Shown here piece after piece: positions 506 to 25,842 of a DNA stretch of 64,000 bases (within the stretch, counting starts at the first letter, position 1; every line of letters begins with the position of its first letter). Origin of the DNA: Escherichia coli (GTDB lineage Bacteria > Pseudomonadota > Gammaproteobacteria > Enterobacterales > Enterobacteriaceae); assembly GCF_045037415.1 (NCBI RefSeq), contig NZ_CP173438.1; one strand, 5' to 3'. The notes under the pieces are model-generated. The model was not told the origin of the DNA, did no database searches, and worked only from the letters and a program-made list of their open reading frames with translations. Position numbers and translations under genes: made by a program.

Positions 506-3376
506 TTATATTTTTTCCAGCGCGGTGAGTATTTTCTCCGGTGTGAAATGCCATTCGCGTAACCAGATGCCGCAGGCATCGTGAATTGCGGTAGCAATCG
601 CCGGAGCTGCGCCATTTACACCGATTTCCGAGATCGATTTCGCCCCGAATGGGCCGACTTTATCGTCGCTCGGCACCAGCACAGCGCGGAAATCACGCGG
701 AATGTCACCAATTTTCGGTGCGCCGTAACTGCGTAAATCACGCGTTAACGGGTGACCTTCGGCGTCATAAATGATCTCTTCGCTCATACTGTGGCCGATA
801 GCACGCAGGGTGGCACCGTAGATTTGTCCCAACGCTAACTCTGGATTGACCGGTGTACCGCAGTCCAGCAAGGCGTAGAATTTATCCAGGCGGATTTCAC
901 CCGTACGCGTGTTGACGGCAACTTCAGCGAAGTTTGCGCCATACGGGAAGGCGAAATCAGGTGTGATATAACTGCCAGTTCCCACCAGTGAACCAAAGCC
1001 GGTGCCGGTTTCGCCTTTATGGGCTATCTCTCCGAAACTAACTTCGCCTTTCTTGCCGCGAACGACGCCCGGCGTTGCTAGTTGAACATCTGCCACTGGC
1101 TCACCCAATATTTGCGCGCCGTGGAACAGGATTTTCTCCCGCAGATTTTCCGCTGCCAAACGCGCAGCGTTACCCGAGAAGCAAGTACCGGACGAGGCAT
1201 ATGCGCCTTTATCAAACAGTGCATGATCGGTATCACCAGAGATAACATGCACGTCCTGCGGTGGGCAGTGCAGCACTTCTGCTGCCAGTTTGGTCACCAC
1301 AGTATCCAGACCAGTACCAATATCCGCACCACCGGAATGAACGATAAAGGTGCCATCCGATTCCAGTTTGATCATGCAGTTAGCCTGATCGATATCCGGG
1401 ATACCCGATTTCTGCATGATAATGGCGACGCCGCGACCGATGTGCCAGTCACCATTTTGCGGTTTTGGTGAAGACCATTGGATCATCTCGCGACCCTGAC
1501 GCAGGATCTCTTCCAGTGCGCAGCTGGCGGCGGAAGGAACGGAGGTCGGCGCTTTACCTTCACCGATTGCACCGAGAATTTTCAGCTCTTGCCCTTCGTG
1601 TACCCGGTTACGTTCGATAATTTCCAGTTGGTCGATCTGTAACTGTTCAGCCAGTTCCGCTAATGCCATGGTGATAGCGAAGTTACCTTTCGGTGCGCCA
1701 TAACCCTGATAAGCACCATTTGGGCAAATGTTGCTGTAGTAGGTGGTGACCTGAAAATCGACGTTATCGCATGGATATAACGGCAGCGACAGCGCCGGTC
1801 CGTTACACGGTACGGTGAGTGAGTGGTTACCGTAAGGACCCGTGTTGGCGCGGAAATCCATCTTCACTGCCGTCAGGCGACCATCTTTTTTCGCGCCCAG
1901 TTTGACGGTGACTTTCGCGACGTGACGAGAGGTGTTAGCAATAAACTCTTCTTCACGGGTGTAGCGGAAAAGTACCGGACGCCCGGTCACGCAGGTTGCC
2001 CAGGCGCACACTTCTTCCAGCAGGATGTCCTGTTTGGAACCAAAACCGCCGCCAACTCGCTCTTTAATGACATGAACTTTATGCTGTTTCATGCCCACGA
2101 GGCGCGCGACCTGGCGGCGTAAGTGCCATGGTACCTGGGTGGAGGCGTGGATCACCAGACGATCGCCGTCCATACGGGTAAAGCAGATATGTGTTTCAGT
2201 CGGGCACTGCTGTGCCTGCGTTGAATTATAGGTTCGCTCAATGATCACATCGGCATCGGCAAAGCCTTTGTCCATATCGCCAATATGACCATGAATACTG
2301 GCGGCGATATTTTTGCGTGGGCGAGAACCGATCGGGAAGTTGATGATCATATGCTCGCCGCGCTGGGCTGCATGGCTGTTATCATCTTCCAGAGTATCTG
2401 GCGCACCAGCAACATACACCACCGGTTCATCGTGCACGACAGGCGCATCTTCCGCCATTGCCTCGTCAATCGACATTACCGGCTTAAGCACTTCATATTC
2501 AACGTCGATGAGCTTCAGTGCTTCGAGCGCAATGTCTTCACTTTCGGCTACTACCGCAGCAACGCGATCGCCGACGTGACGCATTTTCTTGCCGAACATT
2601 CGGCGGTCAAGCGGTGACGGTTCCGGTGCGCTCTGACCACCCGGGGTATAGTAAATATCCGGGCAATTCAGGTGAGTAATAACGTGAACGACGCCCGGTA
2701 AGGCTTCAGCTTTGCTGACATCCAGATGAGTAATCAGTGCGTGAGCGTGTGGGCTACGTAACATTTTAATGACGCAGGCGTCAGCCGTTACGCGATCTTC
2801 AACATAGCAGGGTTTCGCCTGCACCATTTTCGCGGCATCAGTTTTAGGATAATGCTTGCCAATGACTTCAAGGTCGTCACGGAAAGTCGGAGCGATATCA
2901 ATGGTGGCCTGCGGATTATTTTTACGTGCAACCGCCAGTTCAATGACCTGATAGTATTGCTGCCAGCCAGCATCGCGGCTAAACAGACCTGAGAGTGCGT
3001 CGTCGATCTCTTCGCGGGTAGGTGCGTCGATGCGATCGAGAAGATCGGTGATAATCAGAGCCGCAGCTGGATCGTTATAACCAGACTGCACCACGCCAAC
3101 ATCAACCATGGCCTGTTGAACCAGACTTAACTCATTCCATTTGCCCAGAGATTCTGCGGTACGAATATCTGCCTTCTCTAACTGTGCGGCGATAAGCAAG
3201 GACGCGTTAACGATATTACCGTTAAAGATAATTGCGTCAGAACCGGCAAACCCAAAGCCATCATCACTGTTGCGTACAGAGTGCATTCCCATGTTAAACA
3301 ACAGCTTTTGCACGTTTTCGCCTGGATTAACGGTTAGCTCCTGAGGCGCGCCATTTAAAGTAAAGTGGATGATCAT
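506..3376 (-). CDS. xdhD: Molybdopterin-binding hydroxylase subunit (xanthine dehydrogenase family) with N-terminal ferredoxin-like domain lacking Cys ligands
   Basis: 956 aa ORF; GGGFGSK motif, aldehyde oxidase/xanthine dehydrogenase-like body; 4-nt overlap with ygfM. Confidence 0.93.
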   Translation of the reverse strand: MIIHFTLNGAPQELTVNPGENVQKLLFNMGMHSVRNSDDGFGFAGSDAIIFNGNIVNASLLIAAQLEKADIRTAESLGKWNELSLVQQAMVDVGVVQSGYNDPAAALIITDLLDRIDAPTREEIDDALSGLFSRDAGWQQYYQVIELAVARKNNPQATIDIAPTFRDDLEVIGKHYPKTDAAKMVQAKPCYVEDRVTADACVIKMLRSPHAHALITHLDVSKAEALPGVVHVITHLNCPDIYYTPGGQSAPEPSPLDRRMFGKKMRHVGDRVAAVVAESEDIALEALKLIDVEYEVLKPVMSIDEAMAEDAPVVHDEPVVYVAGAPDTLEDDNSHAAQRGEHMIINFPIGSRPRKNIAASIHGHIGDMDKGFADADVIIERTYNSTQAQQCPTETHICFTRMDGDRLVIHASTQVPWHLRRQVARLVGMKQHKVHVIKERVGGGFGSKQDILLEEVCAWATCVTGRPVLFRYTREEEFIANTSRHVAKVTVKLGAKKDGRLTAVKMDFRANTGPYGNHSLTVPCNGPALSLPLYPCDNVDFQVTTYYSNICPNGAYQGYGAPKGNFAITMALAELAEQLQIDQLEIIERNRVHEGQELKILGAIGEGKAPTSVPSAASCALEEILRQGREMIQWSSPKPQNGDWHIGRGVAIIMQKSGIPDIDQANCMIKLESDGTFIVHSGGADIGTGLDTVVTKLAAEVLHCPPQDVHVISGDTDHALFDKGAYASSGTCFSGNAARLAAENLREKILFHGAQILGEPVADVQLATPGVVRGKKGEVSFGEIAHKGETGTGFGSLVGTGSYITPDFAFPYGANFAEVAVNTRTGEIRLDKFYALLDCGTPVNPELALGQIYGATLRAIGHSMSEEIIYDAEGHPLTRDLRSYGAPKIGDIPRDFRAVLVPSDDKVGPFGAKSISEIGVNGAAPAIATAIHDACGIWLREWHFTPEKILTALEKI

Positions 3377-4152
3377 ACGGCTTCCTCCCCAGCCTGTTGG
3401 CAGTCGGCATACAGGTCGGCTACCAGAACTCCCGTGATATAGCGTTTATAGGCCACGCTGCCCCGCAAATCTTCCTGCGGGAAAATGGCGTTGGCGACAG
3501 CCTGTTCCAGTGCATTGCCTTCCAGATTTTGAGTTTCAACATCATGCAGACGCAGTGCTTTACTGGCGACGCCATCCAGCGCAATTCGCATACCGTCGTG
3601 GTCTGTTATTGCAACGGCTGCCGTCACGACGGTTAAACCTGCCTGAGAACGGCTAATTTTGCGAGTCGCACAGGTGCGATACGGATCTTTAATGATAATT
3701 TCGGTTAACAGGCGATCGCATGGGCAGGCCAGGTAGTCCTCGATTGACAGCGTTTCGCCGTTGCCAAAAACCAGTTCAGCATCCAGTGCCAGCAGGACGG
3801 GAAGCAGCACTGACTCTTCTTGCCGGGCGGCAATTTCACCACCAATGGTCGACTGATTACGAACATGGCGAGAGTAGACAAAACCGAGAGCTTCCCGCAG
3901 TGCTGCAGGAATAAATCGCGCATCACGCAGTGGCTGCAAGCGAGACATTGCGCCAATTCGTAGTGCACCGTTATCCCAGTCAATCCAGTCCAGCTCCAGA
4001 TCCTGCAAGGAAATGGCAATCTTTTTATCGGTACGGGTTGGTGTAGCGTTGAGTTTGCTGCCCCCGGCGAACCAGACGGCTTCATCCTGGTAGCGGCGCT
4101 TCAGTTCCAGCGCCTGTTCGACAGAGTCGGGTCTGAAAAATTGTTCAATCAT
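3373..4152 (-). CDS. ygfM: FAD-binding subunit of molybdenum hydroxylase (CoxM/XdhB-like)
   Basis: 259 aa; FAGGSKL motif resembling AGGTDL of XdhB; ATGA overlap with xdhD. Confidence 0.9.
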   Translation of the reverse strand: MIEQFFRPDSVEQALELKRRYQDEAVWFAGGSKLNATPTRTDKKIAISLQDLELDWIDWDNGALRIGAMSRLQPLRDARFIPAALREALGFVYSRHVRNQSTIGGEIAARQEESVLLPVLLALDAELVFGNGETLSIEDYLACPCDRLLTEIIIKDPYRTCATRKISRSQAGLTVVTAAVAITDHDGMRIALDGVASKALRLHDVETQNLEGNALEQAVANAIFPQEDLRGSVAYKRYITGVLVADLYADCQQAGEEAV

Positions 4153-4202
4153 CGTCTTTCCTTAATTTCCCCTCTTCTCTGAAAGAAGAGGGGAGCTGTT
4201 AT

Positions 4203-5531
4203 TTATGCCAGCGCATCCATCCGACGCCACATACTGGCAGCGGCTTTTCTGGCTTGCGCATAAATGGAATCGCAATCGAAGTTAAACTGACGGTCTTCAT
4301 AGACCATCACACCATTGACCATCACGCTGTGAACGCTACCTGAGCCCATACCGAAAGCGATATGCCCGGCGATATTGTCTGCCAGCAGCGGCGTCGGCGA
4401 GTTGTAATCGCAAATGGTTAAATCGGCTTTGTAACCGGCTTCCAGAAGCCCAAATTTCGCGCCAAAGTTGCGGCTCATCAGTTCGTTGCCGTTAGCCAGT
4501 GCTTTGGCAAAACTGTCAGGCCACAGCGGGCCACCCGCATCGCGATGTTTAAAGAAGGCAAATTTCATCTCTTCAAACATGTCCGAACCAATGCCGTCCG
4601 TTCCCAACGCCAGATTGCGGATGTCGCTAAGGTGATGGTTGTAGCCGACATGGTTGTTCATGTTTGAACGGGCGTTATGCACCAGGAACGCATCGCGCTG
4701 ATTGAGTAGGACGATGTCATCTTTCGACAGGTACAGCCCATGAGCGACCAGCGTTTTGCTGTCGATGAGATCGAATTGCGCAAGTCGTGCCAGCAGGTCT
4801 TTGCCGTACCAATGGTGACTGTAGGAAACGTCGTAAAGGTCTTCCGCAACGTGAATATGCAAACCACGACCTGTGCTTTTCACGGCTTCACGCAGCATCT
4901 CCAGACCGGCATCCGGCACGGTAAACGGCGCGTGAGCGCCGATATGTGCTTCCACCAGATACGGCTCGGTTGCTGCTTTCTTCGCCTCATCAATCTGACG
5001 GGTGAAGCGGATGTTTTCTTCTACACCTTCCTGCAACTCTTTGATGCCGTTGTTACGGTCAGTAGTTTCAAAACAGGTCATCGCGCGCAGGCCAACTTTT
5101 AAAAATGCGTTGCGCAATGTGGAGAGCGACCCGTCGATATACGCCGGAGAGGCATGGTGATCGATAACCGATGTACATCCGCTCTTAATCGCTTCCAGGG
5201 AACAAATCAGTCCGCTGTAATAGAGCGACTCTTCATCAAGAGCGCGATCGAGCCGCCACCAGAGATTTTTCAGCGTTGAGATGAAATCCGGGCAGGGGGC
5301 GATGTTTGCCATAATTCCGCGGGAAAGCCCCGAGTAAAAATGGTTGTGCGAGCAGACAATTCCCGGCATCACAATCCGACCATGCATCTCTTTGTAGCTG
5401 GCATCGGGGTAGCGTTGCGTCAGGGCATCGCCGATAGCGACAATCACATCATTTTCGATGGCGATATCAACGCCTTCCTGCACTTTCGCCGGGTGTAACT
5501 GCACTGCGGTGACATTCTTCAGAATCAACAT
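4203..5531 (-). CDS. ssnA: Amidohydrolase-superfamily protein (chlorohydrolase/aminohydrolase-like)
   Basis: 442 aa; CSHNHFYSG metal-binding HxH motif; 2-nt gap to ygfK. Confidence 0.9.
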   Translation of the reverse strand: MLILKNVTAVQLHPAKVQEGVDIAIENDVIVAIGDALTQRYPDASYKEMHGRIVMPGIVCSHNHFYSGLSRGIMANIAPCPDFISTLKNLWWRLDRALDEESLYYSGLICSLEAIKSGCTSVIDHHASPAYIDGSLSTLRNAFLKVGLRAMTCFETTDRNNGIKELQEGVEENIRFTRQIDEAKKAATEPYLVEAHIGAHAPFTVPDAGLEMLREAVKSTGRGLHIHVAEDLYDVSYSHHWYGKDLLARLAQFDLIDSKTLVAHGLYLSKDDIVLLNQRDAFLVHNARSNMNNHVGYNHHLSDIRNLALGTDGIGSDMFEEMKFAFFKHRDAGGPLWPDSFAKALANGNELMSRNFGAKFGLLEAGYKADLTICDYNSPTPLLADNIAGHIAFGMGSGSVHSVMVNGVMVYEDRQFNFDCDSIYAQARKAAASMWRRMDALA

Positions 5532-5533
5532 GA

Positions 5534-8500
5534 TTACACCTCCACGCGGCCCAGCAGATAATGATGATGCTGGTGGACATGGCTAATGATGCGGCACATA
5601 TCGTTCAGCTCCGGTGGTACGTTGTTGAACTGACCTTCGCTGTCGATGTTTAACACCCAGCTTTGGTTATTCAGACGTACGCGTACCCGGCAATCTTCCA
5701 CAAGGAAGCCTGGGTTACTGCTGTTATCAAAGTCTTGCGACAGGCTGAAGACGGTGATTTTGTCTTTGTACGGTTTACCGTTCCACGGGCAGAATTGGGC
5801 GCAGTTGCCGCATTCGTTGCAGTAGGCATCGAGATGCAGCGTCTGGAAACGGTTCTGGAAGCCAGGAACCGCAATGGATACGTTGGCGCGGTTCGGGCAG
5901 ACATCCACACACTTGCTGCAAACGTAGTTACATTCAAGGCAGCGTGCGGCTTCCTGTGCGACAAACGCGTCACGATCGTCACTGTTCACCAGAGTGACAG
6001 AGATATCGCCTTTACGTTGATAGATTTCCGCCGGATTTACGTTGTTCCAGTATTTATCGTTCTGGTGGGAACGGATATTTTCCCGACTAAGGATGGTATC
6101 GGTCGCCCGACGCGCGGTTCCGACAGCAGCGACAATGGAGGATGGTCCGCGCTGTACGTCGCCGATCATAAAGACGTCAGTCAGACGCGTTTCGCCATTA
6201 TGGTCGACGTCTGGCCAGCCGTTTTTGTCCAGCGGCACGCCCATCGCATTCAGGGCTTCAGTATCCTGCTGTTCACCAATGGCGGTGATCAGACTGTCCA
6301 CATGCAGTGTTACTGTTTCGTTGGTTTCAACCGGACGGCGACGACCTTTCTCATCAGGTTCGCCAAGCGACATAACGCGCAAGGTTAAGGTGCCATCAGC
6401 ATCGAAACGTTCCGGATTATTCAGAAAACGGAACTCCACGCCGTCGTGCAACGCTTCTTCATACTCTTCGCGCCATGCGGGCATTTCTTGCAGTGAACGA
6501 CGGTAAACGACCGTTGCTTTTTCTACGCCTGGAACGCGTAACGCCGCACGAGCGCAGTCCATTGCGGTGTTACCCGCCCCGACAACGACCACATGTTTGC
6601 CCAGCTTGAGCGCGGTGCCCTTGTTGTATTCACGCAGGAAAGGGAGTGATTTCCAGACATTTTGGTTGTCGCCCGCCAGTTTCACACCGCTATTTTTATC
6701 AGTGCCGGTGGCAATCAGAACATAGTGGAAGCCCTGATTTTTTAACTGTTCAACGGTCAAATCGGGTGAGCAACCGTACTCAAATTTCACGCCGTGAGCG
6801 GCAACAAAATCGATATCGTGCTGAATTAACTCTGCAGGAATACGGAACTGAGGAATGATATTTTTCACCACGCCGCCCGCATTGGCTTCGCGTTCAAACA
6901 GCGTGACCGGATGGCCCGCTCTGGCAAGGAAGTAACCTGCGGCCAGACCCGCCGGACCTGCACCAATCACGGCTACCGGATGGCGTGAACCGGAACCGGC
7001 TGGTTTGTGCCAGCGTTGCTTATATTCATCCCAACCTTTTTCCAGGGCGACTTTTTTCAGTTCGCGGATATTCAGCGCACTGTCGTAATCCAGGCGGGTA
7101 CAGTTGTATTGGCACTGGTGATCGCAAATATGACCGGTAATGGCGGGCAGGGCGTTGCGTTGATAGATGAGTTCCAGCGCGTCGGCATAGCGGTGTTCGC
7201 CAAGCAGACGGATGTATTCCGGAATATCTTGCTTGATAGCGCAGGCAGTAACACAGGGGGCAACGTAGCAATCGGTCAGCGGCAGGTCTTCAGCCACTTC
7301 AATACGCTCTTCTGGCTTCCAGTGTTTCTGGGTGTATTCCATGGTTAACGCGTCTGCTGCCAGTCTGTTCAGTCGTTCGACGTCAACGTGGTTAAGCTCC
7401 CAGGCGTCGGAGCCTTCCAGCTCGCGCATGCAGGCACTTAAGCGCAGATAGCCGCCAGGTTTCAGCAGGTCGGTTGCCATAGTAATAGGGCGAATACCAG
7501 TATCAAAAATATCGCGGATAGTCAGCTGACTGGCACCACCGGAATAAGAAATGGGCAGTTTGCCGTCAAAGGCGCGAGAGAGAACTGCTGCAACGTTGAT
7601 GGAGAGCGGGAACAGCGCACGGCCTGACATATACATCTCTTCACCGGGCAGTGCGCCTTTATTGTTGATGGTGCCGAGAGTGTTAGTCAGTTTTACGCCA
7701 AAGCCGAGTGATTTTTCTTTTGCCAGTGCCATCAGGCGTTCCAGCATTTCCAGTGCTTGCGTCAGCTTGAGGTCGTGATCAAATGACTCTTCTTTTAAGC
7801 CGATGTAACCGAAACCGCAGACATCGAGGATCTCACGAACACGCGCGTACCCCAGTAAGGTCGGGTTGAGTTTCACAAAGGTGTTGAGTCCTTTTTCTTC
7901 CAGCATGTAGCGGCAAATGGCTTCGATTTCATGCGGAGGACAGCCGTGCATGGTGGAGAGGGTAACACCTTGTACCATGCTGGTGGGGATGCGAGCGGGT
8001 AAGGCTTGCAAGCTTTCGCGTTTTTCCTGCAATCCGTGGCGGGCTAAAAATGCCTCATCCTGGAGTAGCTTATTAAGTGCATCGCGGTATTGAGCGAATT
8101 TCGGATGGTCAGATGCGTCCATCATATTGTCGATGAACTGCTGCATCGGCGGTTGCTTAATACCTTCGAGGTTGTAACCGACGCTCATATTAAAGATGAA
8201 CGATTTACCGGAATCAGAAGGCTGGAACATCGCTTCGAGAAGGTGCAGGGCAAACCAGGCTTTGAGGTATTCATCCCAGGCTTTAAGCAGGGTAAATTCG
8301 GTAGACCATTCGGTGTTAAAGCACTCGTCTTCGGCATCGATACAGGGCTTTTCCAGCTCCAGACGGTCAAGAATTTGGACGGTTTTTAGTTCGATGAAGC
8401 GTCCGCCAGTCAGCCAGGAAGTGACAATATTTTGCGCGAGTTGCGTGTGCGGGCCAGCGGCAGGGCCGACGGGAGTGGCACAGGTTTCACCGAAGACGCT

Positions 8501-8632
8501 AACAGTTTTACTTTTTACGGGTGAGTAAAACTGTTGCTCGGGAATACCAAAGATTGAGCGTTGTTGTTGGTATTCATCAAATATGCGCGTCAAAAGTTCC
8601 TCAAACGGAATGGGACGCATAATATCCCCCAT
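5534..8632 (-). CDS. ygfK: Large Fe-S flavoprotein oxidoreductase (GltD-like NAD(P)/FAD domain plus ferredoxin-type 4Fe-4S motifs)
   Basis: 1032 aa; VAVIGAGPAGLAAGYFLARAG dinucleotide fold; CLECNYVCSKCVDVCP cluster motif near C-terminus. Confidence 0.92.
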   Translation of the reverse strand: MGDIMRPIPFEELLTRIFDEYQQQRSIFGIPEQQFYSPVKSKTVSVFGETCATPVGPAAGPHTQLAQNIVTSWLTGGRFIELKTVQILDRLELEKPCIDAEDECFNTEWSTEFTLLKAWDEYLKAWFALHLLEAMFQPSDSGKSFIFNMSVGYNLEGIKQPPMQQFIDNMMDASDHPKFAQYRDALNKLLQDEAFLARHGLQEKRESLQALPARIPTSMVQGVTLSTMHGCPPHEIEAICRYMLEEKGLNTFVKLNPTLLGYARVREILDVCGFGYIGLKEESFDHDLKLTQALEMLERLMALAKEKSLGFGVKLTNTLGTINNKGALPGEEMYMSGRALFPLSINVAAVLSRAFDGKLPISYSGGASQLTIRDIFDTGIRPITMATDLLKPGGYLRLSACMRELEGSDAWELNHVDVERLNRLAADALTMEYTQKHWKPEERIEVAEDLPLTDCYVAPCVTACAIKQDIPEYIRLLGEHRYADALELIYQRNALPAITGHICDHQCQYNCTRLDYDSALNIRELKKVALEKGWDEYKQRWHKPAGSGSRHPVAVIGAGPAGLAAGYFLARAGHPVTLFEREANAGGVVKNIIPQFRIPAELIQHDIDFVAAHGVKFEYGCSPDLTVEQLKNQGFHYVLIATGTDKNSGVKLAGDNQNVWKSLPFLREYNKGTALKLGKHVVVVGAGNTAMDCARAALRVPGVEKATVVYRRSLQEMPAWREEYEEALHDGVEFRFLNNPERFDADGTLTLRVMSLGEPDEKGRRRPVETNETVTLHVDSLITAIGEQQDTEALNAMGVPLDKNGWPDVDHNGETRLTDVFMIGDVQRGPSSIVAAVGTARRATDTILSRENIRSHQNDKYWNNVNPAEIYQRKGDISVTLVNSDDRDAFVAQEAARCLECNYVCSKCVDVCPNRANVSIAVPGFQNRFQTLHLDAYCNECGNCAQFCPWNGKPYKDKITVFSLSQDFDNSSNPGFLVEDCRVRVRLNNQSWVLNIDSEGQFNNVPPELNDMCRIISHVHQHHHYLLGRVEV

Positions 8633-8704
8633 AACCCTCTCCTTAGCTTATACAGATATCATTGAGTGACCGGTGTTGAGAAATCCGGTGGTTTAGGGGG
8701 ATAG

Positions 8705-8720
8705 AGCAACAATCGCACCA
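8705..8720 (-). promoter_or_regulatory. Candidate sigma-54 (-24/-12) promoter upstream of ygfK
   Basis: Minus strand reads TGGTGCGATTGTTGCT; GG and GC dinucleotides 10 bp apart, matches TGGCAC-N5-TTGCW at 14 of 16 positions; about 70 nt upstream of ygfK start. Confidence 0.4.
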
Positions 8721-8783
8721 CTCTTGCCAGGTTTGACGGGAAATATAAAAAAATGTGAGGCGGCTCGAAACTTAATGGCTTTT

Positions 8784-8799
8784 TGTGAATGAACTCACA
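8784..8799. promoter_or_regulatory. CRP-like palindrome TGTGA-N6-TCACA (CRP site or enhancer-binding-protein UAS)
   Basis: Sequence TGTGAATGAACTCACA, perfect inverted half-sites, about 70 bp upstream of the candidate -24 element. Confidence 0.4.
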
Positions 8800-8953
8800 G
8801 GTGCCAAATGAGAATTAAAATCACTCCTGAAAATTATTATTGCCAGCCCATTTATCACTTTTTCTCTTTTCTCAAAATCAGTGATTCCTTATCATTATGA
8901 TAAAGAGTGCTGGAGGGATTAAATATTTGAACGCAATCGTTTAACTACGTTTT

Positions 8954-9532: not shown

Positions 9533-9635
9533 AGTGATTCCATTATTTACAGGAGCTAATAACGCCTGATAATTGCGTTACTTCCTGATGGATTACGTTG
9601 AGGGTAATTTATCCCAGAGAGGTCCATAAAGACGC

Positions 9636-10406: not shown

Positions 10407-10453
10407 CGGCCCGGGTATTCCGGGTTACTGAAAGGATATCCATTGAGGTTGGT

Positions 10454-12079: not shown

Positions 12080-12087
12080 ATGAAAAT

Positions 12088-12113
12088 GGCCGGATGGTAT
12101 TACCCATCCGGCC
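12088..12113. terminator. Bidirectional hairpin terminator between convergent yqeB and yqeA
   Basis: GGCCGGATGG-tatta-CCCATCCGGCC followed by TTTAAATT. Confidence 0.6.
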
Positions 12114-12119
12114 TTTAAA

Positions 12120-13052
12120 TTACTGACAAATCACCGTTCCGGTTTTGCCTTCAATCCCTTCTTTCGCTTTGCTCAATACGGTAATCAGTGCTTCACGACC
12201 TGCGCGAGAGCGAGCAAACGAGGCGGCAGCTTCCACTTTAGGCAGCATAGAACCTTTCGCAAAATGACCTTCTTCGATAAAGCGTTCAGCATCACTTAAT
12301 GACAGGCGATCGAGCCACTGTTCATTCTCTTTTCCGAAGTTAATGGCCACTTTTTCTACCGCAGTCAGAATGATCAGCATATCGGCATCGATCATTTCTG
12401 CTAAACGGGCACTGGCCCAGTCTTTATCGATAACCGCGCTGGCACCACGCAGATGGTTACCTTCACGAATAACAGGGATACCACCACCGCCAACGGTGAT
12501 CACCACCTGTCCGGCATCTACCAGAGCTTTAACCGTTTCTTTTTCAATGATATCAACCGGTTTTGGCGAAGCAACGACACGACGATAGCCGCGACCCGCA
12601 TCTTCTTTCAGAGTGTAACCCTGTTTTGTCAGTAGCTCTGCTTCTTGCTCGGTAAAGAACGAACCAATCGGCTTGGTCGGGTTGAGGAATGCCGGATCGT
12701 TAGCATCGACTTCGACCTGGGTAACCAGCGTTGCTACAGGTTTATTAATGCCACGAGAAAGCAGTTCTTCTCTTAAGGCGTTTTGTAGATCGTAACCAAT
12801 ATAACCCTGGCTTAAGGCAACACAGACAGACATCGGCAGCATTGGCGAGTGCGCTTCAGTTTTTGCGGCAGCTTCAAAGGCCTGGTTAATCATGCCCACC
12901 TGTGGCCCGTTGCCATGAGTGACGATGACCTCATGTCCCTGGGCAATTAAATCAACAATTGCCTGAGAAGTAATTTTTACCGCTTTCATTTGTCCGGCCA
13001 GGTCATCGCCCAGCGCATTCCCGCCCAGGGCGAGAACAATTTTCTTACTCAT
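12120..13052 (-). CDS. yqeA: Carbamate kinase
   Basis: 310 aa; N-terminus MSKKIVLALGGNALG typical of carbamate kinases. Confidence 0.93.
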   Translation of the reverse strand: MSKKIVLALGGNALGDDLAGQMKAVKITSQAIVDLIAQGHEVIVTHGNGPQVGMINQAFEAAAKTEAHSPMLPMSVCVALSQGYIGYDLQNALREELLSRGINKPVATLVTQVEVDANDPAFLNPTKPIGSFFTEQEAELLTKQGYTLKEDAGRGYRRVVASPKPVDIIEKETVKALVDAGQVVITVGGGGIPVIREGNHLRGASAVIDKDWASARLAEMIDADMLIILTAVEKVAINFGKENEQWLDRLSLSDAERFIEEGHFAKGSMLPKVEAAASFARSRAGREALITVLSKAKEGIEGKTGTVICQ

Positions 13053-13099
13053 TTTTCCTCACTCATCATTCTTGATTGTGTATAGATCCCTGGCAGTGG

Positions 13100-14485
13100 T
13101 TAGAGCACGGGAGGGACAAACGGTTTGCGTCGCAGGAAACGACCTCGCCCGGCTTTGCCTGTAAAGGTGCCGTCGCAGAAAATCGTTTCACCACGGGATA
13201 AGGTTCTGACAATCGCGCCCTGACAGGTAAAACCCTCCCATGGCGAGTAGTCAGCGTTGTCGTGGAGATGGCGATGCTGAATTTGTTGGCTCTGACGTGG
13301 GTCTATAATCACCACGTCGCCATCGGAACCGGGCGCTAATAATCCTTTTTGTGGCCACAGGCCAAACAGCCTGGCGGGCATTGCACTGGTTAACTCAACA
13401 AAACGCTCCGGTGAGATACGCCCCGTCATCACGCCACTGGAGAACAGCAGTTGCATGCGGTTCTCCACACCGGGTAAGCCATTTGGGCAGCGGCTGAAAT
13501 CGCCTTTAGAAATTTGCAGGCGTTGAGCCATCGAGAAGGTGCAGTGATCGGTTGCCACCACGTCAATCGCACCATCGCTGATGCCACACCACAGTTTGTC
13601 CTGCTCGCGTACGTTACGCAGCGGTGGGCTAAGAATGAACTTCATGCCATCTTCTGTATCGTAACTGCGTTCGTCCAACAGGAGATATTGTGGGCAGGTT
13701 TCAACCCAGACTGGCTGGTGATTCGCACGGGCAAGACGCAGATAATCCAGACCTAAGCCGTTAGACAGGTGCACGATATAGAGCGGGGCGTTACCGGCAA
13801 TTTGTGCCAGGTTAATCATGCGGGCGATGGCTTCCGCTTCGCATTCCAGAGGTCGACTCAAGGCATGATAACGCGGCGCGGTTAACCCTGCGGCGATAAA
13901 CTCCGCCCGCTTGCTGGCGATAGCTGCGTCATTTTCCGGGTGCACGGTGGTCAGCGCGCCGGACTCATGCAAGCGGCGTAATGCCTGCAACACTTCATCA
14001 TCGTTGAGTTTATATTGATAGGTTAAATAGAGTTTAAAACTGCTCAGTCCTTCCTCAACCATCATCGGAATTTCGTCGAGGATAGCGTGATTAATATGTT
14101 GAATGACACCGTGAAAGCTGTAGTCGATGACTGCTTTGTGGGCGGCATAACCGCGATAAACTTCCAGTTGATGGCGTAACCGGCAGCCATTTGGGCCAAA
14201 TCCCATATGGTCAATAATGGTTGTTGTACCGCCACACGCAGCTGCGCGGGTACCGGTAAAAAAATCATCACAACTGCGCGCGATGCCGACATCAATATTG
14301 AAATGCGTATGGACATCCACGCCGCCAGGGAAAACGTAACAGCCAGAGGCATCAATTTCTTCGCAAGGGAGTTGCGGCGAAATATCGGTACCCAACTGGC
14401 GAACAATCCCGCTTTCAATCAGCAAATCCTGCTTCGCCTGTCCATCTGCATTAACAACAATGCCGTTTTTTATCAATACGCGCAT
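13100..14485 (-). CDS. hyuA: Cyclic amidohydrolase (D-phenylhydantoinase/dihydropyrimidinase family)
   Basis: GGVDVHTHF metal-binding motif; ATG at 14485 with GGAG RBS preferred over the upstream TTG of the 465-aa track ORF, giving 461 aa. Confidence 0.92.
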   Translation of the reverse strand: MRVLIKNGIVVNADGQAKQDLLIESGIVRQLGTDISPQLPCEEIDASGCYVFPGGVDVHTHFNIDVGIARSCDDFFTGTRAAACGGTTTIIDHMGFGPNGCRLRHQLEVYRGYAAHKAVIDYSFHGVIQHINHAILDEIPMMVEEGLSSFKLYLTYQYKLNDDEVLQALRRLHESGALTTVHPENDAAIASKRAEFIAAGLTAPRYHALSRPLECEAEAIARMINLAQIAGNAPLYIVHLSNGLGLDYLRLARANHQPVWVETCPQYLLLDERSYDTEDGMKFILSPPLRNVREQDKLWCGISDGAIDVVATDHCTFSMAQRLQISKGDFSRCPNGLPGVENRMQLLFSSGVMTGRISPERFVELTSAMPARLFGLWPQKGLLAPGSDGDVVIIDPRQSQQIQHRHLHDNADYSPWEGFTCQGAIVRTLSRGETIFCDGTFTGKAGRGRFLRRKPFVPPVL

Positions 14486-14500
14486 AGCAAACTCCAAAAA

Positions 14501-14520
14501 CCCTCCGGTGAACCGGAGGG
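14501..14520 (-). promoter_or_regulatory. Intercistronic hairpin with U-run overlapping the hyuA ribosome-binding site
   Basis: Minus strand: CCCTCCGGttcaCCGGAGGG, then TTTTT, then GGAG and ATG of hyuA. Confidence 0.45.
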
Positions 14521-14537
14521 GAATAAGTGAAGAGTAA

Positions 14538-15749
14538 TTATTCGGTTGCCAGCCAGCTTAATGGGATTGCAGCGTACATAGCGGCACAGGTTACCAGGTG
14601 AGATTTCCAGGTTTTTTCGTTTGGCGCGTGCGCTTCCGGTTCTTTACCGGGGCCAAAACCGATGACCGGAATGCCGTGGCGACCCATGATGGATACGCCA
14701 TTAGTCGAGAAGGTCCACTTATCAACGACAGGCGCTTTACCAAACAGCCCTTCATAAGCATTCACCAGTGCTTTAACGGTGAAGTGATCTTCTTCCACTT
14801 TCCAGGTCGGGAAGTAGCATTCGGTTGGGTAAACCAGGCCAGTCCAGGACGGGCGGTCGTAGTTGTACATAGAAACGACAGCATTCGCTTTTTGTACTGC
14901 AGGCAGGGCACGGATCTCGTCCAGCGCGCCTTCCCAGGTTTCGCCCCAGGTCAGACGACGGTCGATTGAAACTGCGCAGCTGTCTGCGACAGCGCAACGG
15001 CTTGGGGAGGTGAAGAAAATTTCAGAAACGGTGAGGGTGCCTTTGCCGAGGAATTCGTCATAACCCAGACGTTGGGAGAGTTCTTGTAATTCGCCAAGAA
15101 TCGGACCCATTTTGAAAATGGCGTTATCACCGCGTTCTGGTGCCGAACCGTGGCAGCTAACACCCTGAACATCAATACGAATTTCCATACGACCGCGTTG
15201 ACCACGGTATACCTGGCAGTCGGTTGGTTCGGTACTGACCACAAATTCCGGGCGAATGCCGGATTGTTCAATAATGTACTGCCAGCACAGGCCGTCGCAG
15301 TCTTCTTCCTGCACAGTACCGGTAACCAGCAGGGTATATTCATCTTCCAGACCGAGATCTTTAATGATTTTACCGGCATATACCATAGACGCCATGCCGC
15401 CTTCCTGGTCGGAAGTACCACGACCACCGATCAGCTCGTCGGTTTCCATGCCTTCATACGGATCGAAGTCCCAGTTTTTGATGTTGCCAATGCCGACTGT
15501 ATCGATATGAGCGTCCATTGCCACCAGACGCGGGCCGTGGCCGATATAACCGAGAACGTTGCCCATTGGGTCGATTTCAACTTTATCGAAGCCGACTTTT
15601 TCCATCTCTTCTTTAATACGATGTACTACGCGTTTCTCGTCGCAGCTTTCACTGGGAATAGCAACCATATCGCGCAGGAAGCGAGTCATGTCTGCCTGGT
15701 AATCTTTTGCTTTTTCAAGAATCAGTTTGAATGGAATATTCTTAGCCAT
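14538..15749 (-). CDS. ygeY: M20-family metallopeptidase/deacylase (ArgE/DapE-like)
   Basis: 403 aa; M20 family assignment rests mainly on length and operon position (by recall); no specific motif checked. Confidence 0.9.
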
Positions 15750-15806
15750 TATTTTTCTCCAGATTTTTTACTCCCCGTTTTGCAGGGAGCAGTTCCAATA
15801 GGGTGA

Positions 15807-17003
15807 TTAAGGTGCTACAGCGTGTTTGCCTTCCCAGACAACTTCGCGGTAGTGCTTCACGTCGGTGTCGCCTTCAGTGCTGATAACCAGCACCACGGCA
15901 TCTTTGTTCAGCGCCAGTTTTTCCATCAGGCTTTGACGTTGCGGGTGATAATGAACCGCTGCGAGAACGCCCAAACCGACAGCGCCGGATTCACCGGAGA
16001 TGATGCGCGGGTCGTTGCCGTACGGATTACCCAGCACGCGCATACCTAATGCGGCAACGCTGTCCTGGCAGGAGATGAATTGGGTGGCGCAGTTACGTAG
16101 GATTTCCCAGCCCAGCGGGTTAGGTTCGCCGCAGGCCAGGCCCGCCATGATGGTGGCCATATCACCGCCAACGTTGACGATGTCGCCTTTGACGCCGGAG
16201 CGATAAATACAGTCAGCTTTGTCAGGTTCAACAATAATGCTGTGCAGATTTTGCGGGCTATAGACGTCGACCAGATAACCCAGCACACCACCGGCCATTG
16301 CACCGACACCTGCTTGCAGCAGAACGTGTGTCGGGGTTACGCCCATTTCACGCATTTGCTCGACGGCTTCATCCGCCAGTGTTGCGTAGCCTTGCATGAT
16401 CCAGGTTGGGATTTTGGTGTAACCTTCCCATGCCGTGTCCTGTACCACTTCCCAGCCGTGCTGCTGCGCGTGTTGCATGGTCAGGCGAACGGTATCGTCA
16501 TAGTTCATATCCGTGACGATGCACTCGGCACCGAGGTTTAGAATGGCGTCAACGCGTTCCTGAGCAGAACCTTTCGGCATGTAAATCACCGCATTCTGTC
16601 CGAGTTGCTGAGCGGCCCATGCCACACCGCGCCCGTGGTTGCCGTCGGTGGTGGTCGCGAAAGTCATTTTTTCGCCAATGGCATTTTTCAGGTGCTCAAA
16701 TGATAGCGTTTCGATATCAAGATGATATTTTTCACACAATAATTGAGCGATGGCGTATGCGCCGCCGAGCATTTTGAAGGCGTTCAGACCGAAGCGTTTT
16801 GATTCGTCCTTAACGAGAATTTTCTTTACACCAAACAGGTTTGCGAGATCGTCCAGCGCACAAAGCGGTGTTGGGCGATAACCAGCAATTTTCTGGTGGA
16901 ACTGGCGTGCCAGTTTTGCCTGGCTTTGCGAAAAAAGCGGTGATGTTTCGCCGTTGAAAAATTTGTTATCGGCGATATCAATCTTTAATGAGAAAACGGA
17001 CAT
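15807..17003 (-). CDS. ygeX: PLP-dependent diaminopropionate ammonia-lyase
   Basis: 398 aa; fold-type II PLP enzyme features; position between ygeY and ygeW. Confidence 0.9.
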   Translation of the reverse strand: MSVFSLKIDIADNKFFNGETSPLFSQSQAKLARQFHQKIAGYRPTPLCALDDLANLFGVKKILVKDESKRFGLNAFKMLGGAYAIAQLLCEKYHLDIETLSFEHLKNAIGEKMTFATTTDGNHGRGVAWAAQQLGQNAVIYMPKGSAQERVDAILNLGAECIVTDMNYDDTVRLTMQHAQQHGWEVVQDTAWEGYTKIPTWIMQGYATLADEAVEQMREMGVTPTHVLLQAGVGAMAGGVLGYLVDVYSPQNLHSIIVEPDKADCIYRSGVKGDIVNVGGDMATIMAGLACGEPNPLGWEILRNCATQFISCQDSVAALGMRVLGNPYGNDPRIISGESGAVGLGVLAAVHYHPQRQSLMEKLALNKDAVVLVISTEGDTDVKHYREVVWEGKHAVAP

Positions 17004-17060
17004 ATCCTATCCTTTTGGCCTCTGGAAATAGAGGGCCGACCAGCTGATCGGCCCGAGGGG

Positions 17061-18251
17061 TTATTTCACGCGTTCTTGCGCTTCTTTCAGCAGTTGCTCG
17101 AGCAGTGCACCTGGTTTGGCGTATTTACGGGACAGGATCATCGCGGCGATGATATAAGGCTTCCAGCTGGCTTCTTTGTAGGTAGCGATACGGTATTTTT
17201 CGAATACGCCTTCAGTCACTTCACCTTCTTTGCAGGATACGCCGCTGATATCAGCTGGCAGGCAGTGCATGTACAGGGCTTCGCCATCACGGGTCAGCTC
17301 CATCATCTCTTCGGTACAATGCCAGTCTTTGTGCTGTGCGTTCTGTGCCAGACACTGTTTTTCCAGCGCTTTCAGTCCTTCGTGATCGTTCGCACGCAGC
17401 AGTTCAGTACGCTCTTCCATCACTTTGTAAGGTGCCCAGGACTTCGGATAAACGATGTCTGCGTCTTTGAAGGCTTCTTCCATGCTGGTGACCTGACGGA
17501 AGCTACCACCGGAGGCTTTAGCATTGTTTTTAGCAACTTCAACGACATCCGGGATCAGGTCGTAGCCTTCCGGATGGGCCAGGGTGACATCCATACCGAA
17601 GCGGGTCATCAGACCGATGATGCCTTGTGGTACAGAGAGCGGTTTGCCATAGCTTGGGGAGTAGGCCCAGGTCATGGCGATTTTTTTACCTTTCAGGTTT
17701 TCCAGTGAACCAAAGTGTTCACGTAACCATGCCAGATCAGCCATTGATTGAGTCGGGTGGTCAATATCGCATTGCAGGTTCACTAAAGCCGGACGCTGCG
17801 GCAGCACACCCTGCTTGTAACCGTCATCAAGTGCAGCGCCAACTTCACGCATATAGGCGTTGCCTGCGCCCAGATACATATCGTCGCGAATACCGATAGC
17901 GTCAGCGCAGAAGGAGATCATATTGGCGGTTTCACGCACGGTTTCGCCGTGAGCGATTTGTGATTTACCTTCGTCAAGATCTTGTTGTGCAAGGCCGAGC
18001 AGGTTAAGCGCGGAAGCATAAGAGAAGCGGGTACGGGTGGAATTGTCGCGGAATACGGAAATACCTAATCCACTATTAAAGACTTTGGTTGAGATGTTTT
18101 CAGCACGCAGTGCTTTTAACGCGGCGGCAACGTCCAGTACTTGTTTCAGTTCGTCTGGCGTCTGTTCCCACGTTAACAAAAAATCTTTTTCATGCAGGTG
18201 AGAGGTCAGCGAATTGATATCCTTAATCAGCTCATTAACAGTTTTCATCAT
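17061..18251 (-). CDS. ygeW: Transcarbamylase of unknown specificity (ATCase/OTCase fold)
   Basis: 396 aa; carbamoyl-phosphate motif STRTR and HCLP motif both present. Confidence 0.93.
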   Translation of the reverse strand: MMKTVNELIKDINSLTSHLHEKDFLLTWEQTPDELKQVLDVAAALKALRAENISTKVFNSGLGISVFRDNSTRTRFSYASALNLLGLAQQDLDEGKSQIAHGETVRETANMISFCADAIGIRDDMYLGAGNAYMREVGAALDDGYKQGVLPQRPALVNLQCDIDHPTQSMADLAWLREHFGSLENLKGKKIAMTWAYSPSYGKPLSVPQGIIGLMTRFGMDVTLAHPEGYDLIPDVVEVAKNNAKASGGSFRQVTSMEEAFKDADIVYPKSWAPYKVMEERTELLRANDHEGLKALEKQCLAQNAQHKDWHCTEEMMELTRDGEALYMHCLPADISGVSCKEGEVTEGVFEKYRIATYKEASWKPYIIAAMILSRKYAKPGALLEQLLKEAQERVK

Positions 18252-18343
18252 AAAGTCCCGATAGTGGAATGACAGGCAAAGTGGTTTATTTCACTGTGAC
18301 GTGCCAAAGTGATTGGTGTTTTCACAGCTATACCTCGGACTAA

Positions 18344-18357
18344 CAATAAGTGTGCCA
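18344..18357 (-). promoter_or_regulatory. Weak candidate sigma-54 promoter upstream of ygeW
   Basis: Minus strand TGGCACACTTATTGTT: perfect -24 TGGCAC but -12 reads TTGT instead of TTGC. Confidence 0.25.
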
Positions 18358-18400
18358 GAATTATCCACGCGGCTGCGAAAGGCTAATTTGACGGATAATG

Positions 18401-18416
18401 TGTGGGGTTGATCACA
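18401..18416. promoter_or_regulatory. CRP-like palindrome in ygeW-ygeV divergent region
   Basis: TGTGGGGTTGATCACA (TGTGg-N6-TCACA). Confidence 0.3.
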
Positions 18417-18726
18417 TATTGATGCCAGTTTCCGGTTGTTTGTAAAATACGAAAACGTTTGGCTTTTTTTATTACGTTATTTATTTGCTGCTAAGTATCA
18501 GAAATAAGATAAAGAGGCAGGCTATCTCTCTTCAGTTTGATAAACTTGCCGCTGTAATTCTCATATTGATATAGAAATGTGATATCTCTTCCATAATTTT
18601 ATTAGAAAGTGATAAAAATCTTATGTTTTTATCAAAGCCAATTTCGCCTGAGTTAATATCATCATGATCTGTGAACCATCAACGTCTTCAATGATCGACT
18701 TTTAAGTAAGTCTGGAAGGTAAAGCT

Positions 18727-20505
18727 ATGGAGCTTGCGACTACGCAGTCAGTATTGATGCAAATTCAACCAACAATTCAGCGTTTTGCCAGAATGCTTGC
18801 CAGCGTTTTGCAGCTTGAGGTTGAGATCGTTGATGAAAACTTGTGTCGCGTCGCCGGAACGGGCGCGTATGGGAAGTTTCTTGGCCGCCAGTTGAGCGGC
18901 AACTCACGTCTGCTCCGCCACGTCCTGGAAACGAAAACTGAAAAAGTTGTGACACAGTCTCGCTTCGATCCCCTTTGTGAAGGTTGCGATAGTAAAGAAA
19001 ATTGCCGCGAAAAAGCATTTCTGGGTACGCCAGTCATTTTACAGGATCGTTGTGTTGGGGTGATAAGTTTGATTGCCGTTACCCACGAGCAACAAGAACA
19101 TATCAGTGATAATTTACGCGAATTTTCCGATTACGTTCGCCATATATCCACCATTTTTGTTTCTAAACTTCTGGAGGATCAGGGACCAGGAGATAACATC
19201 AGTAAAATATTCGCGACCATGATCGATAATATGGATCAGGGCGTGTTAGTGGTTGATGCTGATAATCGGGTTCAGTTTGTTAATCAGACAGCTTTAAAAA
19301 CACTCGGTGTTGTACAAAATAATATTATTGGAAAACCTGTTCGTTTCAGACCATTAACATTTGAGAGTAATTTTACCCATGGTCATATGCAACATATTGT
19401 TTCGTGGGATGATAAAAGTGAATTAATCATTGGTCAGTTGCATAACATCCAGGGCCGACAACTATTTTTAATGGCGTTTCACCAATCGCATACCAGTTTT
19501 TCTGTAGCAAATGCACCTGATGAACCGCATATTGAACAATTGGTTGGCGAGTGCCGTGTTATGCGGCAATTAAAACGACTCATTAGCCGTATTGCACCCA
19601 GCCCATCCAGCGTTATGGTGGTTGGTGAAAGCGGCACGGGTAAAGAAGTCGTCGCCCGTGCAATCCATAAGTTGAGCGGAAGACGGAATAAACCCTTTAT
19701 TGCTATCAACTGTGCCGCGATTCCGGAACAGCTTCTGGAGAGCGAACTGTTCGGTTATGTTAAAGGCGCATTTACTGGCGCTTCTGCCAACGGTAAAACA
19801 GGGTTGATTCAGGCGGCGAATACGGGCACGCTGTTTCTCGATGAAATTGGTGATATGCCATTAATGTTGCAGGCTAAATTACTGCGCGCTATTGAGGCGC
19901 GTGAAATTCTGCCGATTGGTGCCAGTAGCCCAATACAAGTCGACATCCGCATCATTTCTGCAACTAATCAGAATTTGGCCCAGTTCATTGCCGAAGGTAA
20001 ATTCCGCGAAGATCTCTTCTACCGACTTAATGTTATCCCGATAACTCTTCCACCGCTGCGTGAACGTCAGGAAGATATTGAATTACTAGTGCATTACTTT
20101 TTACATCTGCATACCCGTCGTCTGGGATCGGTTTATCCTGGCATTGCTCCTGATGTCGTCGAAATATTGCGTAAGCATCGTTGGCCCGGAAACCTGCGCG
20201 AGTTAAGCAATTTGATGGAATATCTGGTTAACGTTGTTCCTTCAGGTGAAGTTATCGACAGCACGCTATTGCCGCCAAATCTGCTGAATAATGGCACAAC
20301 GGAGCAAAGTGATGTAACAGAGGCCAGTGAGGCGCACCTGTCACTCGATGATGCGGGCGGCACGGCGCTGGAAGAGATGGAAAAGCAAATGATCCGCGAG
20401 GCGCTTTCACGTCATAACAGCAAGAAGGAAGTTGCTGATGAACTGGGCATCGGCATTGCTACGCTCTATCGCAAGATTAAGAAATATGAGTTGTTAAACA
20501 CATAA
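18727..20505 (+). CDS. ygeV: Sigma-54-dependent transcriptional activator (bacterial enhancer-binding protein) with N-terminal sensor domain
   Basis: 592 aa; Walker A GESGTGKE, GAFTGA sigma-54 contact motif, C-terminal HTH. Confidence 0.95.
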   Translation: MELATTQSVLMQIQPTIQRFARMLASVLQLEVEIVDENLCRVAGTGAYGKFLGRQLSGNSRLLRHVLETKTEKVVTQSRFDPLCEGCDSKENCREKAFLGTPVILQDRCVGVISLIAVTHEQQEHISDNLREFSDYVRHISTIFVSKLLEDQGPGDNISKIFATMIDNMDQGVLVVDADNRVQFVNQTALKTLGVVQNNIIGKPVRFRPLTFESNFTHGHMQHIVSWDDKSELIIGQLHNIQGRQLFLMAFHQSHTSFSVANAPDEPHIEQLVGECRVMRQLKRLISRIAPSPSSVMVVGESGTGKEVVARAIHKLSGRRNKPFIAINCAAIPEQLLESELFGYVKGAFTGASANGKTGLIQAANTGTLFLDEIGDMPLMLQAKLLRAIEAREILPIGASSPIQVDIRIISATNQNLAQFIAEGKFREDLFYRLNVIPITLPPLRERQEDIELLVHYFLHLHTRRLGSVYPGIAPDVVEILRKHRWPGNLRELSNLMEYLVNVVPSGEVIDSTLLPPNLLNNGTTEQSDVTEASEAHLSLDDAGGTALEEMEKQMIREALSRHNSKKEVADELGIGIATLYRKIKKYELLNT

Positions 20506-24260: not shown

Positions 24261-24276
24261 GGCAAGAATTACGCCA
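24261..24276 (-). promoter_or_regulatory. Weak candidate sigma-54 promoter upstream of xdhA
   Basis: Minus strand TGGCGTAATTCTTGCC; GG-N10-GC spacing preserved. Confidence 0.2.
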
Positions 24277-25832: not shown

Positions 25833-25842
25833 ACAACGGATA

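Follow-up and report, generated by a model that had tools for sequence, protein, structure and literature searches.

The 64-kb stretch of DNA analysed here (the window) is a piece of the Escherichia coli chromosome, collinear with strain SA186 (NZ_CP022730.1) at 99.99% identity over its full length, and the subject of this work is the five-gene module ygeW-ygeX-ygeY-hyuA-yqeA that it carries at positions 12120-18251. The module is very probably the lower half of the published reductive uric-acid (2,8-dioxopurine, 'yanthine') pathway of E. coli, in which a urate-derived ureide yields both ATP and pyruvate. The module and its reading as a carbamoyl-phosphate fermentation are already known and were published in 2025 by two independent groups, which rebuilt the pathway in vitro from recombinant enzymes of K-12: Li et al. 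(Life Metab, PMC12507026) and Liu et al. (bioRxiv 10.1101/2025.04.24.650524; hereafter Liu et al. 2025). Only the position-conserved hairpins inside the module and a candidate regulator palindrome in front of it are modestly new.

Enzymes of the module and their pathway

The first step of the pathway, as shown with the K-12 enzymes, is the reduction of urate to 2,8-dioxopurine by XdhD-YgfM, a product of the partner operon, followed by the dearomatisation of 2,8-dioxopurine and the opening of its six-membered (pyrimidine) ring by YgfK and SsnA to give ureidomethyl-hydantoin. HyuA (hyuA, 13100..14485, minus strand), a cyclic amidohydrolase of the D-hydantoinase/dihydropyrimidinase type, then opens the hydantoin ring to generate 2,3-diureidopropionate. 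The knotted catabolic carbamoyltransferase YgeW (ygeW, 17061..18251, minus strand) transfers one carbamoyl group of 2,3-diureidopropionate to phosphate, thereby releasing carbamoyl phosphate and a mono-ureido-aminopropionate, and the carbamate kinase YqeA (yqeA/arcC, 12120..13052, minus strand) passes the phosphate of carbamoyl phosphate to ADP, leaving carbamate and providing one ATP by substrate-level phosphorylation. The hydrolysis of the second ureido group by the M20 metallo-hydrolase YgeY (ygeY, 14538..15749, minus strand) results in 2,3-diaminopropionate, both amino groups of which are eliminated as 2 NH3 by YgeX (ygeX/dpaL, 15807..17003, minus strand), a pyridoxal 5'-phosphate (PLP)-dependent 2,3-diaminopropionate ammonia-lyase, and the pyruvate so formed feeds mixed-acid fermentation.

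Exactly five open reading frames (ORFs) fill the interval 12120-18251, arranged head to tail on the minus strand and separated, from ygeW to yqeA, by spacers of 57, 57, 52 and 47 bp, which agrees with the five genes on one strand with short gaps described in the first-pass annotation, a reading made from the letters of the window alone. The families that it had assigned to the five proteins are borne out by their scores, all of which exceed the cut-offs of curated NCBIfam equivalogs: YgeW reaches 825.2 bits (cut-off 453) and 675.5 bits (cut-off 500) against the two models of the knotted carbamoyltransferase YgeW (NF005538 and TIGR03316), YgeX 651.1 bits (cut-off 532.25) against diaminopropionate ammonia-lyase (TIGR03528), YgeY 721.6 bits (cut-off 321.5) and 713.6 bits (cut-off 321) against the YgeY family of M20 hydrolases (TIGR03526 and NF009555), HyuA 667.5 bits (cut-off 393.25) against D-hydantoinase/dihydropyrimidinase (TIGR02033), and YqeA 385.4 bits (cut-off 358.25) against carbamate kinase ArcC (TIGR00746). 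The motifs on which the same annotation had drawn are all present: STRTR at residue 71 and HCLP at residue 329 of YgeW, which together with HPTQ at residue 165 are those of carbamoyl-phosphate binding in the transcarbamylase superfamily, and DVHTHF in HyuA, which is the HxH metal-binding motif of the cyclic amidohydrolases.

Comparison with solved structures gives the same picture, YgeW matching PDB 3Q98 (E = 5.9e-270) and YgeX matching PDB 4D9G (E = 2e-274), while the best solved relatives of HyuA and YqeA are the D-hydantoinase 1YNY (E = 1.6e-108) and the carbamate kinase 1B7B (E = 2.4e-89); among the solved structures searched, no close relative of YgeY was found. The trefoil-knotted fold expected of YgeW is supported by the structure paper to which PMC4016543 refers, whose title names the knot. 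YgeW falls below the cut-offs of ornithine carbamoyltransferase (OTCase; 133.2 versus 280.85 bits) and of putrescine carbamoyltransferase (PTCase; 108 versus 500 bits), and it is not an OTCase, although the module works like the arginine deiminase pathway.

The published enzyme results carry over directly to the window, since its YgeW, YgeX and YgeY do not differ from their K-12 counterparts (100% identity), while HyuA is identical at 454 of 461 residues (98%) and YqeA at 309 of 310 (99%). HyuA thus holds seven of the eight amino-acid differences of the module from K-12, five of them within its first 46 residues. Two start codons may be mentioned here: hyuA is annotated from the ATG at 14485 and the ORF finder takes the in-frame TTG at 14497, 12 nt upstream, and the 5' end of ygeW (18246-18251) reads ATGATG, the protein being annotated with 396 residues in K-12 and 395 in SA186.

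The roles of the partner-operon enzymes XdhD-YgfM, YgfK and SsnA were established by Li et al. (PMC12507026), who also reported that HyuA opens both ureidomethyl-hydantoin and 5-ureido-dihydrouracil to 2,3-diureidopropionate; the HyuA assayed was that of Clostridioides difficile in Li et al. (PMC12507026) and that of E. coli in Liu et al. 2025. The ring opening to an N-carbamoyl compound that the first-pass annotation had put at the head of the module is thereby confirmed, as is its claim that ATP is drawn from carbamoyl phosphate through YqeA: when YgeW and YqeA are combined with 2,3-diureidopropionate, ADP and Mg, ATP is made as the substrate is converted (Liu et al. 2025). For YgeX, the conversion of 2,3-diaminopropionate to pyruvate has been shown as well (PMC12507026; Liu et al. 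2025). Two of the proposed steps need amendment. The phosphorolysis by YgeW has been demonstrated with phosphate, but the acceptor that it leaves is a mono-ureido-aminopropionate and not free diaminopropionate; and YgeX does deaminate diaminopropionate to pyruvate, but it cannot take over straight from YgeW, whose product must first be hydrolysed by YgeY. The annotation had added that the ureido substrate is unreadable from the sequence alone, with which we agree, and the in vitro and mutant experiments that it proposed are essentially those that have been published, with a supportive outcome.

The results obtained in living cells point the same way. Matching intermediates build up in mutants of E. 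coli and C. sporogenes (Liu et al. 2025; Liu et al. 2022 preprint), none of the E. coli ygeW, ygeX, ygeY and hyuA mutants accumulates labelled acetate from urate (Liu et al. 2022 preprint), and the cluster homologues of ygeW, ygeX, ygeY, ygfK and ssnA are induced by urate in three gut bacteria (Liu et al. 2022 preprint). The cluster had been tied to purine catabolism and to carbamate kinase on bioinformatic grounds already in 2013 (PMC4016543).

An older, annotation-based reading sees in these genes a set for the utilisation of hydantoins, dihydropyrimidines or D-amino acids, or takes YgeW for the missing oxamate carbamoyltransferase of allantoin fermentation, with no link to urate; HyuA would be a D-phenylhydantoinase and YgeX a stand-alone detoxifier of diaminopropionate. 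It draws on the RefSeq name of hyuA ('D-phenylhydantoinase'), on the merely 'putative' status of YgeW, YgeY and YqeA in K-12, on the match of HyuA to a generic dihydropyrimidinase model, and on a description of the physiological role of YgeW as elusive in 2013 (PMC4016543). This reading is contradicted by the published assays and we consider it extremely improbable: the path from urate to pyruvate has been reconstituted in vitro (PMC12507026; Liu et al. 2025), the intermediates that build up in mutants are labelled from urate (Liu et al. 2025), homologues of five of the genes respond to urate as described above, the genes are found grouped with xdh, ygfK and ssnA in bacteria that are only distantly related, and E. 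coli does not grow on diaminopropionate (Liu et al. 2025).

Several observations weigh against the urate pathway as we have set it out. Urate consumption is only partly blocked in the E. coli ygeW, ygeX, ygeY and hyuA mutants (Liu et al. 2022 preprint), which is accounted for by XdhABC, since this enzyme can also reduce urate, to xanthine (PMC12507026). The peak of the YgeW product is small in vitro, for which the authors blame an unfavourable phosphorolysis (PMC12507026). The two reconstitutions give that product different names, 3-amino-2-ureidopropanoate in Liu et al. 2025 and albizziin (2-amino-3-ureidopropionate) in PMC12507026. At the level of the transcript, a terminator-like hairpin stands between ygeY and hyuA, so that a single five-gene transcript is putative only, and yqeA is missing from the published list of the YgeV iModulon.

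The ureido group removed by YgeW

The disagreement on the YgeW product amounts to a question of regiochemistry, which a commentary (PMC12990295) lists as unresolved; our search of the literature found no later paper that settles it. The sequence does not settle it either, as family resemblance and the experiment with an authentic standard point in opposite directions.

In the assignment of Li et al., it is the 2-ureido group that YgeW removes by phosphorolysis; albizziin is the product, and the 3-ureido group is left for hydrolysis by YgeY. The product of HyuA and YgeW co-elutes with commercial albizziin, albizziin is turned into pyruvate by YgeY and YgeX, an overexpressing strain builds up albizziin, and UacY, the D-aminoacylase homologue of C. 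difficile that stands in for YgeW and YqeA, yields the same product (all PMC12507026). These authors report no comparison with the isomer 3-amino-2-ureidopropanoate, and the commercial substrates were racemic, which leaves the stereochemistry ambiguous (PMC12507026). The assignment is also opposed by that of Liu et al. 2025 and by family resemblance; we give it about an even chance.

According to Liu et al. 2025, YgeW phosphorolyses the 3-ureido group, thereby producing (R)-3-amino-2-ureidopropanoate, and YgeY hydrolyses the N-alpha (2-) ureido group. The product agrees with a synthetic standard in retention time, mass and fragmentation (Liu et al. 2025). Family resemblance lends this assignment weak support: YgeW scores 133, 129 and 108 bits against ornithine, N-acetylornithine and putrescine carbamoyltransferases, respectively, which act on terminal amines, and only 75 bits against aspartate carbamoyltransferase, which carbamoylates an alpha-amine, while the families nearest to YgeY are the N-alpha deacylases ArgE and DapE. 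The standard, however, was an undefined mixture obtained by heating diaminopropionate with urea, and albizziin is neither mentioned nor compared (Liu et al. 2025), whereas Li et al. observed the co-elution with commercial albizziin and the conversion of albizziin into pyruvate by YgeY and YgeX (PMC12507026). The 3-ureido assignment thus appears rather unlikely to us, and the assignment of Li et al., with albizziin as the product, is slightly preferred. If YgeW and YgeY were promiscuous and each accepted either ureido position, both reports could be right, and the last steps of the pathway would form a small grid and not a line.

Promoter, regulation and transcript structure

The promoter of ygeW is a sigma-54 element (-24/-12), CTGGCACACTTATTGTT, at 18342..18358 on the minus strand, 90 bp upstream of the gene, and it is the same as site OS30 identified by chromatin immunoprecipitation sequencing (ChIP-seq; PMC4591121); genomic SELEX (gSELEX) places an RpoN site in the ygeV/ygeW spacer as well. 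We base the call on this exact identity and not on our scan of the whole window with a generic sigma-54 pattern (up to two mismatches), because that pattern is only modestly enriched, with 67 matches against 47 expected. Two further elements belong to neighbouring purine genes, namely GTGGTGCGATTGTTGCT in front of ygfK (8705-8721, minus strand), which is identical to ChIP-seq site OS31 (PMC4591121), and CTGGCGTAATTCTTGCC in front of xdhA (24261-24277), which is one base off the K-12 site OS29 (PMC4591121), so that the entire purine-catabolic neighbourhood appears to be a sigma-54 regulon. The scan also picked up an intragenic sigma-54-like motif, TGGCACGCCAGTTCCA, with 1 mismatch, at 16897-16912 on the minus strand, inside ygeX and about 100 nt past its start.

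The activator of this promoter would be YgeV, encoded divergently from ygeW (ygeV, 18727..20505, plus strand) as a sigma-54-dependent activator (enhancer-binding protein). Its sigma-54 interaction domain spans approximately residues 268-588, and none of the NCBIfam equivalogs reaches its cut-off with this protein. The YgeV iModulon holds ygeWXY and hyuA together with xdhABC, ygfK-ssnA-ygfM-xdhD, ygfT and uacT, and ygeV is reported to be among the genes involved when urate is consumed in a formate-dependent manner (Iwadate and Kato 2019, cited after the Liu et al. 2022 preprint).

The ygeV-ygeW spacer comprises 475 bp and is 98% identical to that of K-12. A CRP-like site, TGTGATCAACCCCACA, with 1 mismatch to TGTGA-N6-TCACA, lies at 18401..18416 and is conserved in K-12; it fits the report by Li et al. 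(PMC12507026) that the spacer holds a native Crp-binding site and that glucose represses urate degradation. A perfect 9+9 palindrome, TGATAAAAA-N7-TTTTTATCA, is found at 18610..18634, upstream of the sigma-54 promoter by about 250 bp and of the ygeV start by about 90 bp, within a part of the spacer in which the window and K-12 do not differ. It is a candidate site for YgeV or another regulator, and being A+T-rich it could also be a product of chance. A scan of the whole window against Rfam at gathering thresholds revealed no riboswitch or leader in the 5' untranslated region of ygeW (about 80 nt) or elsewhere in the module, its matches being OmrA, OmrB, one tRNA and nothing else.

The transcript itself would be punctuated by stem-loops. 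The generic scan for promoters and terminators returned 2 and 8 matches against shuffled expectations of 8.1 and 7.2, respectively, and so did not rise above them; the hairpins retained here are only those backed by fold statistics and positional conservation. Folding of the four spacers gives a 9-bp G+C-rich stem-loop directly past the ygeW stop (17033..17054, minus strand; centroid -18.3 kcal/mol, z -1.1), a stem-loop in the ygeX-ygeY spacer (15769..15791, minus strand; -14 kcal/mol, z -2.8) that is followed by an A-run and not by a U-run, and, between ygeY and hyuA, the terminator-like hairpin CCCUCCGG-UUCA-CCGGAGGG with a trailing UUUUU (14496..14520, minus strand, the hairpin itself at 14501-14520; -16.6 kcal/mol, z -3.3); the hyuA-yqeA spacer forms no hairpin. 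The module is closed by a strong bidirectional intrinsic terminator (12088..12113; -23.2 kcal/mol, z -6.1) shared by yqeA and yqeB, which are convergent.

The positions after ygeW and after ygeY are occupied by stem-loops in Morganella and Aeromonas also (L005 11189-11247 and 13688-13756; L004 11189-11315 and 13857-13973), with sequences unrelated to those of E. coli, and the U-run after the post-ygeY hairpin is present in both E. coli and Morganella. The four spacers, 213 nt in all, depart from those of K-12 at one base, which belongs to the loop of the post-ygeY hairpin, in a module of 6132 nt with 193 differing positions (3.1%).

The published operon names end at ygeWXY, and the generic scan found no sigma-70-like promoter before hyuA. 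Side by side with the hairpin after ygeY stand the short spacers of the module and the co-variation of hyuA with ygeWXY in the YgeV iModulon. Expression of hyuA and yqeA would depend on transcription reading through the stem-loops that follow ygeW and ygeY. Judging from the folds and their positions, these stem-loops probably grade transcript levels, either by partial termination or by stabilisation of 3' ends, and the resulting stoichiometry may be YgeW > YgeX/YgeY > HyuA/YqeA. Such a gradation would agree with the operon name ygeWXY, with the co-variation of hyuA and with the absence of yqeA from the iModulon list. We tentatively entertain, with considerable doubt, the combined view that the module is not a flat operon, its stem-loops acting as partial terminators or 3'-end stabilisers, and that, separately, YgeW and YgeY each take either ureido position.

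Conservation, genomic context and related systems

The 6.1-kb stretch is found in 5178 of 5426 complete E. coli genomes; the other 248 show no match to the module, and one of the matches is plasmid-borne. Some clinical strains, few in number (NZ_OX030701.1, NZ_CP035720.1 and relatives), match the module in two pieces with an IS26-family or ISEc52 transposase annotated there, which suggests disruption by an insertion sequence. Outside E. coli, YgeW has homologues with 85-92% identity in Klebsiella, Aeromonas, Morganella, Serratia, Arsenophonus and Salmonella. Aeromonas and Morganella keep the same order of families, OTCase-PALP-M20-amidohydrolase-amino-acid kinase, next to a sigma-54 activator gene, and the Aeromonas cluster also adjoins homologues of yqeB, yqeC, mocA and ygfK. 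A contig with Gram-positive pilin genes carries the order YgeX-YgeY-YgeW-carbamate kinase-(MocA-like)-amidohydrolase. With the same order or families recurring elsewhere, the five-gene arrangement is not due to chance.

Two predicted fusions were met among the metagenomic relatives. A YgeW-YgeY fusion of 963 residues (P0128; L011 8001-10892) is predicted on a gene-sparse scaffold of the TARA ocean data, where it adjoins a single-chain xanthine-dehydrogenase-like gene, and an SsnA-YgeW fusion of 773 residues (P0145) is predicted in a metagenome representative. They could be real Rosetta-stone proteins or gene-calling artefacts and, if real, would back the functional linkage. The distant YgeW representatives P0134, P0135 and P0132 lie on contigs of 3-4 kb, whose context is uninformative, and P0138 (40% identity), whose neighbouring genes are unrelated to the module, may be a member of a different subfamily of knotted transcarbamylases.

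The upper half of the pathway is encoded in the window as well. The partner operon (506..8721, minus strand) consists of ygfK (5534-8632, from ORF and annotation) and of ssnA (~4203-5531), ygfM (~3373-4152) and xdhD (~506-3376), the last three from annotation, the positions having been carried over from the annotated locus with an offset of 3881. Together with the selenium/molybdenum cofactor genes yqeB, yqeC and mocA, all these genes lie within 506-12079.

The closest known system is the ygeW-ygeX-ygeY-hyuA-yqeA module of K-12 itself, which is the same locus with the same gene order, spacers and sigma-54 promoter. The two differ only at the level of strains, the module DNA being 96.85% identical, with 7 substitutions in HyuA and 1 in YqeA; a REP-like insertion of 181 bp and the neighbouring ETT2 remnant of K-12 are absent from the window. 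The insertion (~181 bp; L003 12395-12614) lies between yqeA and yqeB in K-12, flanked by a duplicate of the terminator hairpin, and the corresponding spacer of the window (12080-12119) has 40 bp and a single hairpin. The remnant is a degraded type III secretion island of about 12 kb (yqeH-ygeQ, IS2 and several pseudogenes) between yqeG and the tRNA-Gly gene glyU in K-12 (L006 19078-30984), and in the window (~25453-26000), as in SA186, yqeG directly follows tRNA-Gly (25453-25523). Farther along, the tandem small RNAs OmrB and OmrA (36534-36615 and 36731-36818) occupy the interval between aas and galR, which is where K-12 has them too.

The energy logic of the module, phosphorolysis of a ureido group followed by ATP formation through carbamate kinase, is that of the arginine deiminase pathway (ArcB and ArcC), a comparison drawn in Liu et al. 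2025, and of the agmatine deiminase/putrescine carbamoyltransferase pathway. In these systems the substrate is citrulline or carbamoylputrescine, whereas the module uses 2,3-diureidopropionate, its YgeW belongs to a separate knotted family, and ring-opening, hydrolase and PLP-lyase steps are added. Purine-derived ureides are also phosphorolysed, next to a carbamate kinase, by the ureidoglycine carbamoyltransferase of Rubrobacter xylanophilus (Barba et al. 2013, PMC4016543) and in the oxamate carbamoyltransferase route; unlike the module, these belong to the oxidative (allantoin) branch, with an enzyme resembling aspartate carbamoyltransferase and with allantoate or oxalurate as substrates. The reductive pyrimidine (Pyd) pathway, with the reductase PydA, the dihydropyrimidinase PydB and the decarbamoylase PydC, follows the same chemistry of reduction, opening and decarbamoylation, an analogy made explicitly by Li et al. 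(PMC12507026), but the urate pathway deals with two rings and two ureido groups, one of which is removed with conservation of energy, and ends in pyruvate and not in a beta-amino acid. The urate cluster of C. difficile, finally, encodes the same pathway with the same HyuA, YgeY and YgeX steps (PMC12507026), but replaces YgeW and YqeA by the hydrolase UacY, whose irreversible hydrolysis yields neither carbamoyl phosphate nor ATP.

In conclusion, the presence of this locus in one more E. coli genome adds nothing new, and the residual value of its study lies in two questions, namely the choice that YgeW makes between the two ureido groups and the way in which expression is graded inside the module. 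The pathway to which it very probably belongs is the one by which many gut anaerobes remove the urate secreted by their host, and its importance has been recognised in the literature of 2023-2025. It supplies ATP and a fitness advantage in mice (Liu et al. 2025) and, when engineered into E. coli Nissle, lowers the serum urate of uricase-deficient mice (PMC12507026).

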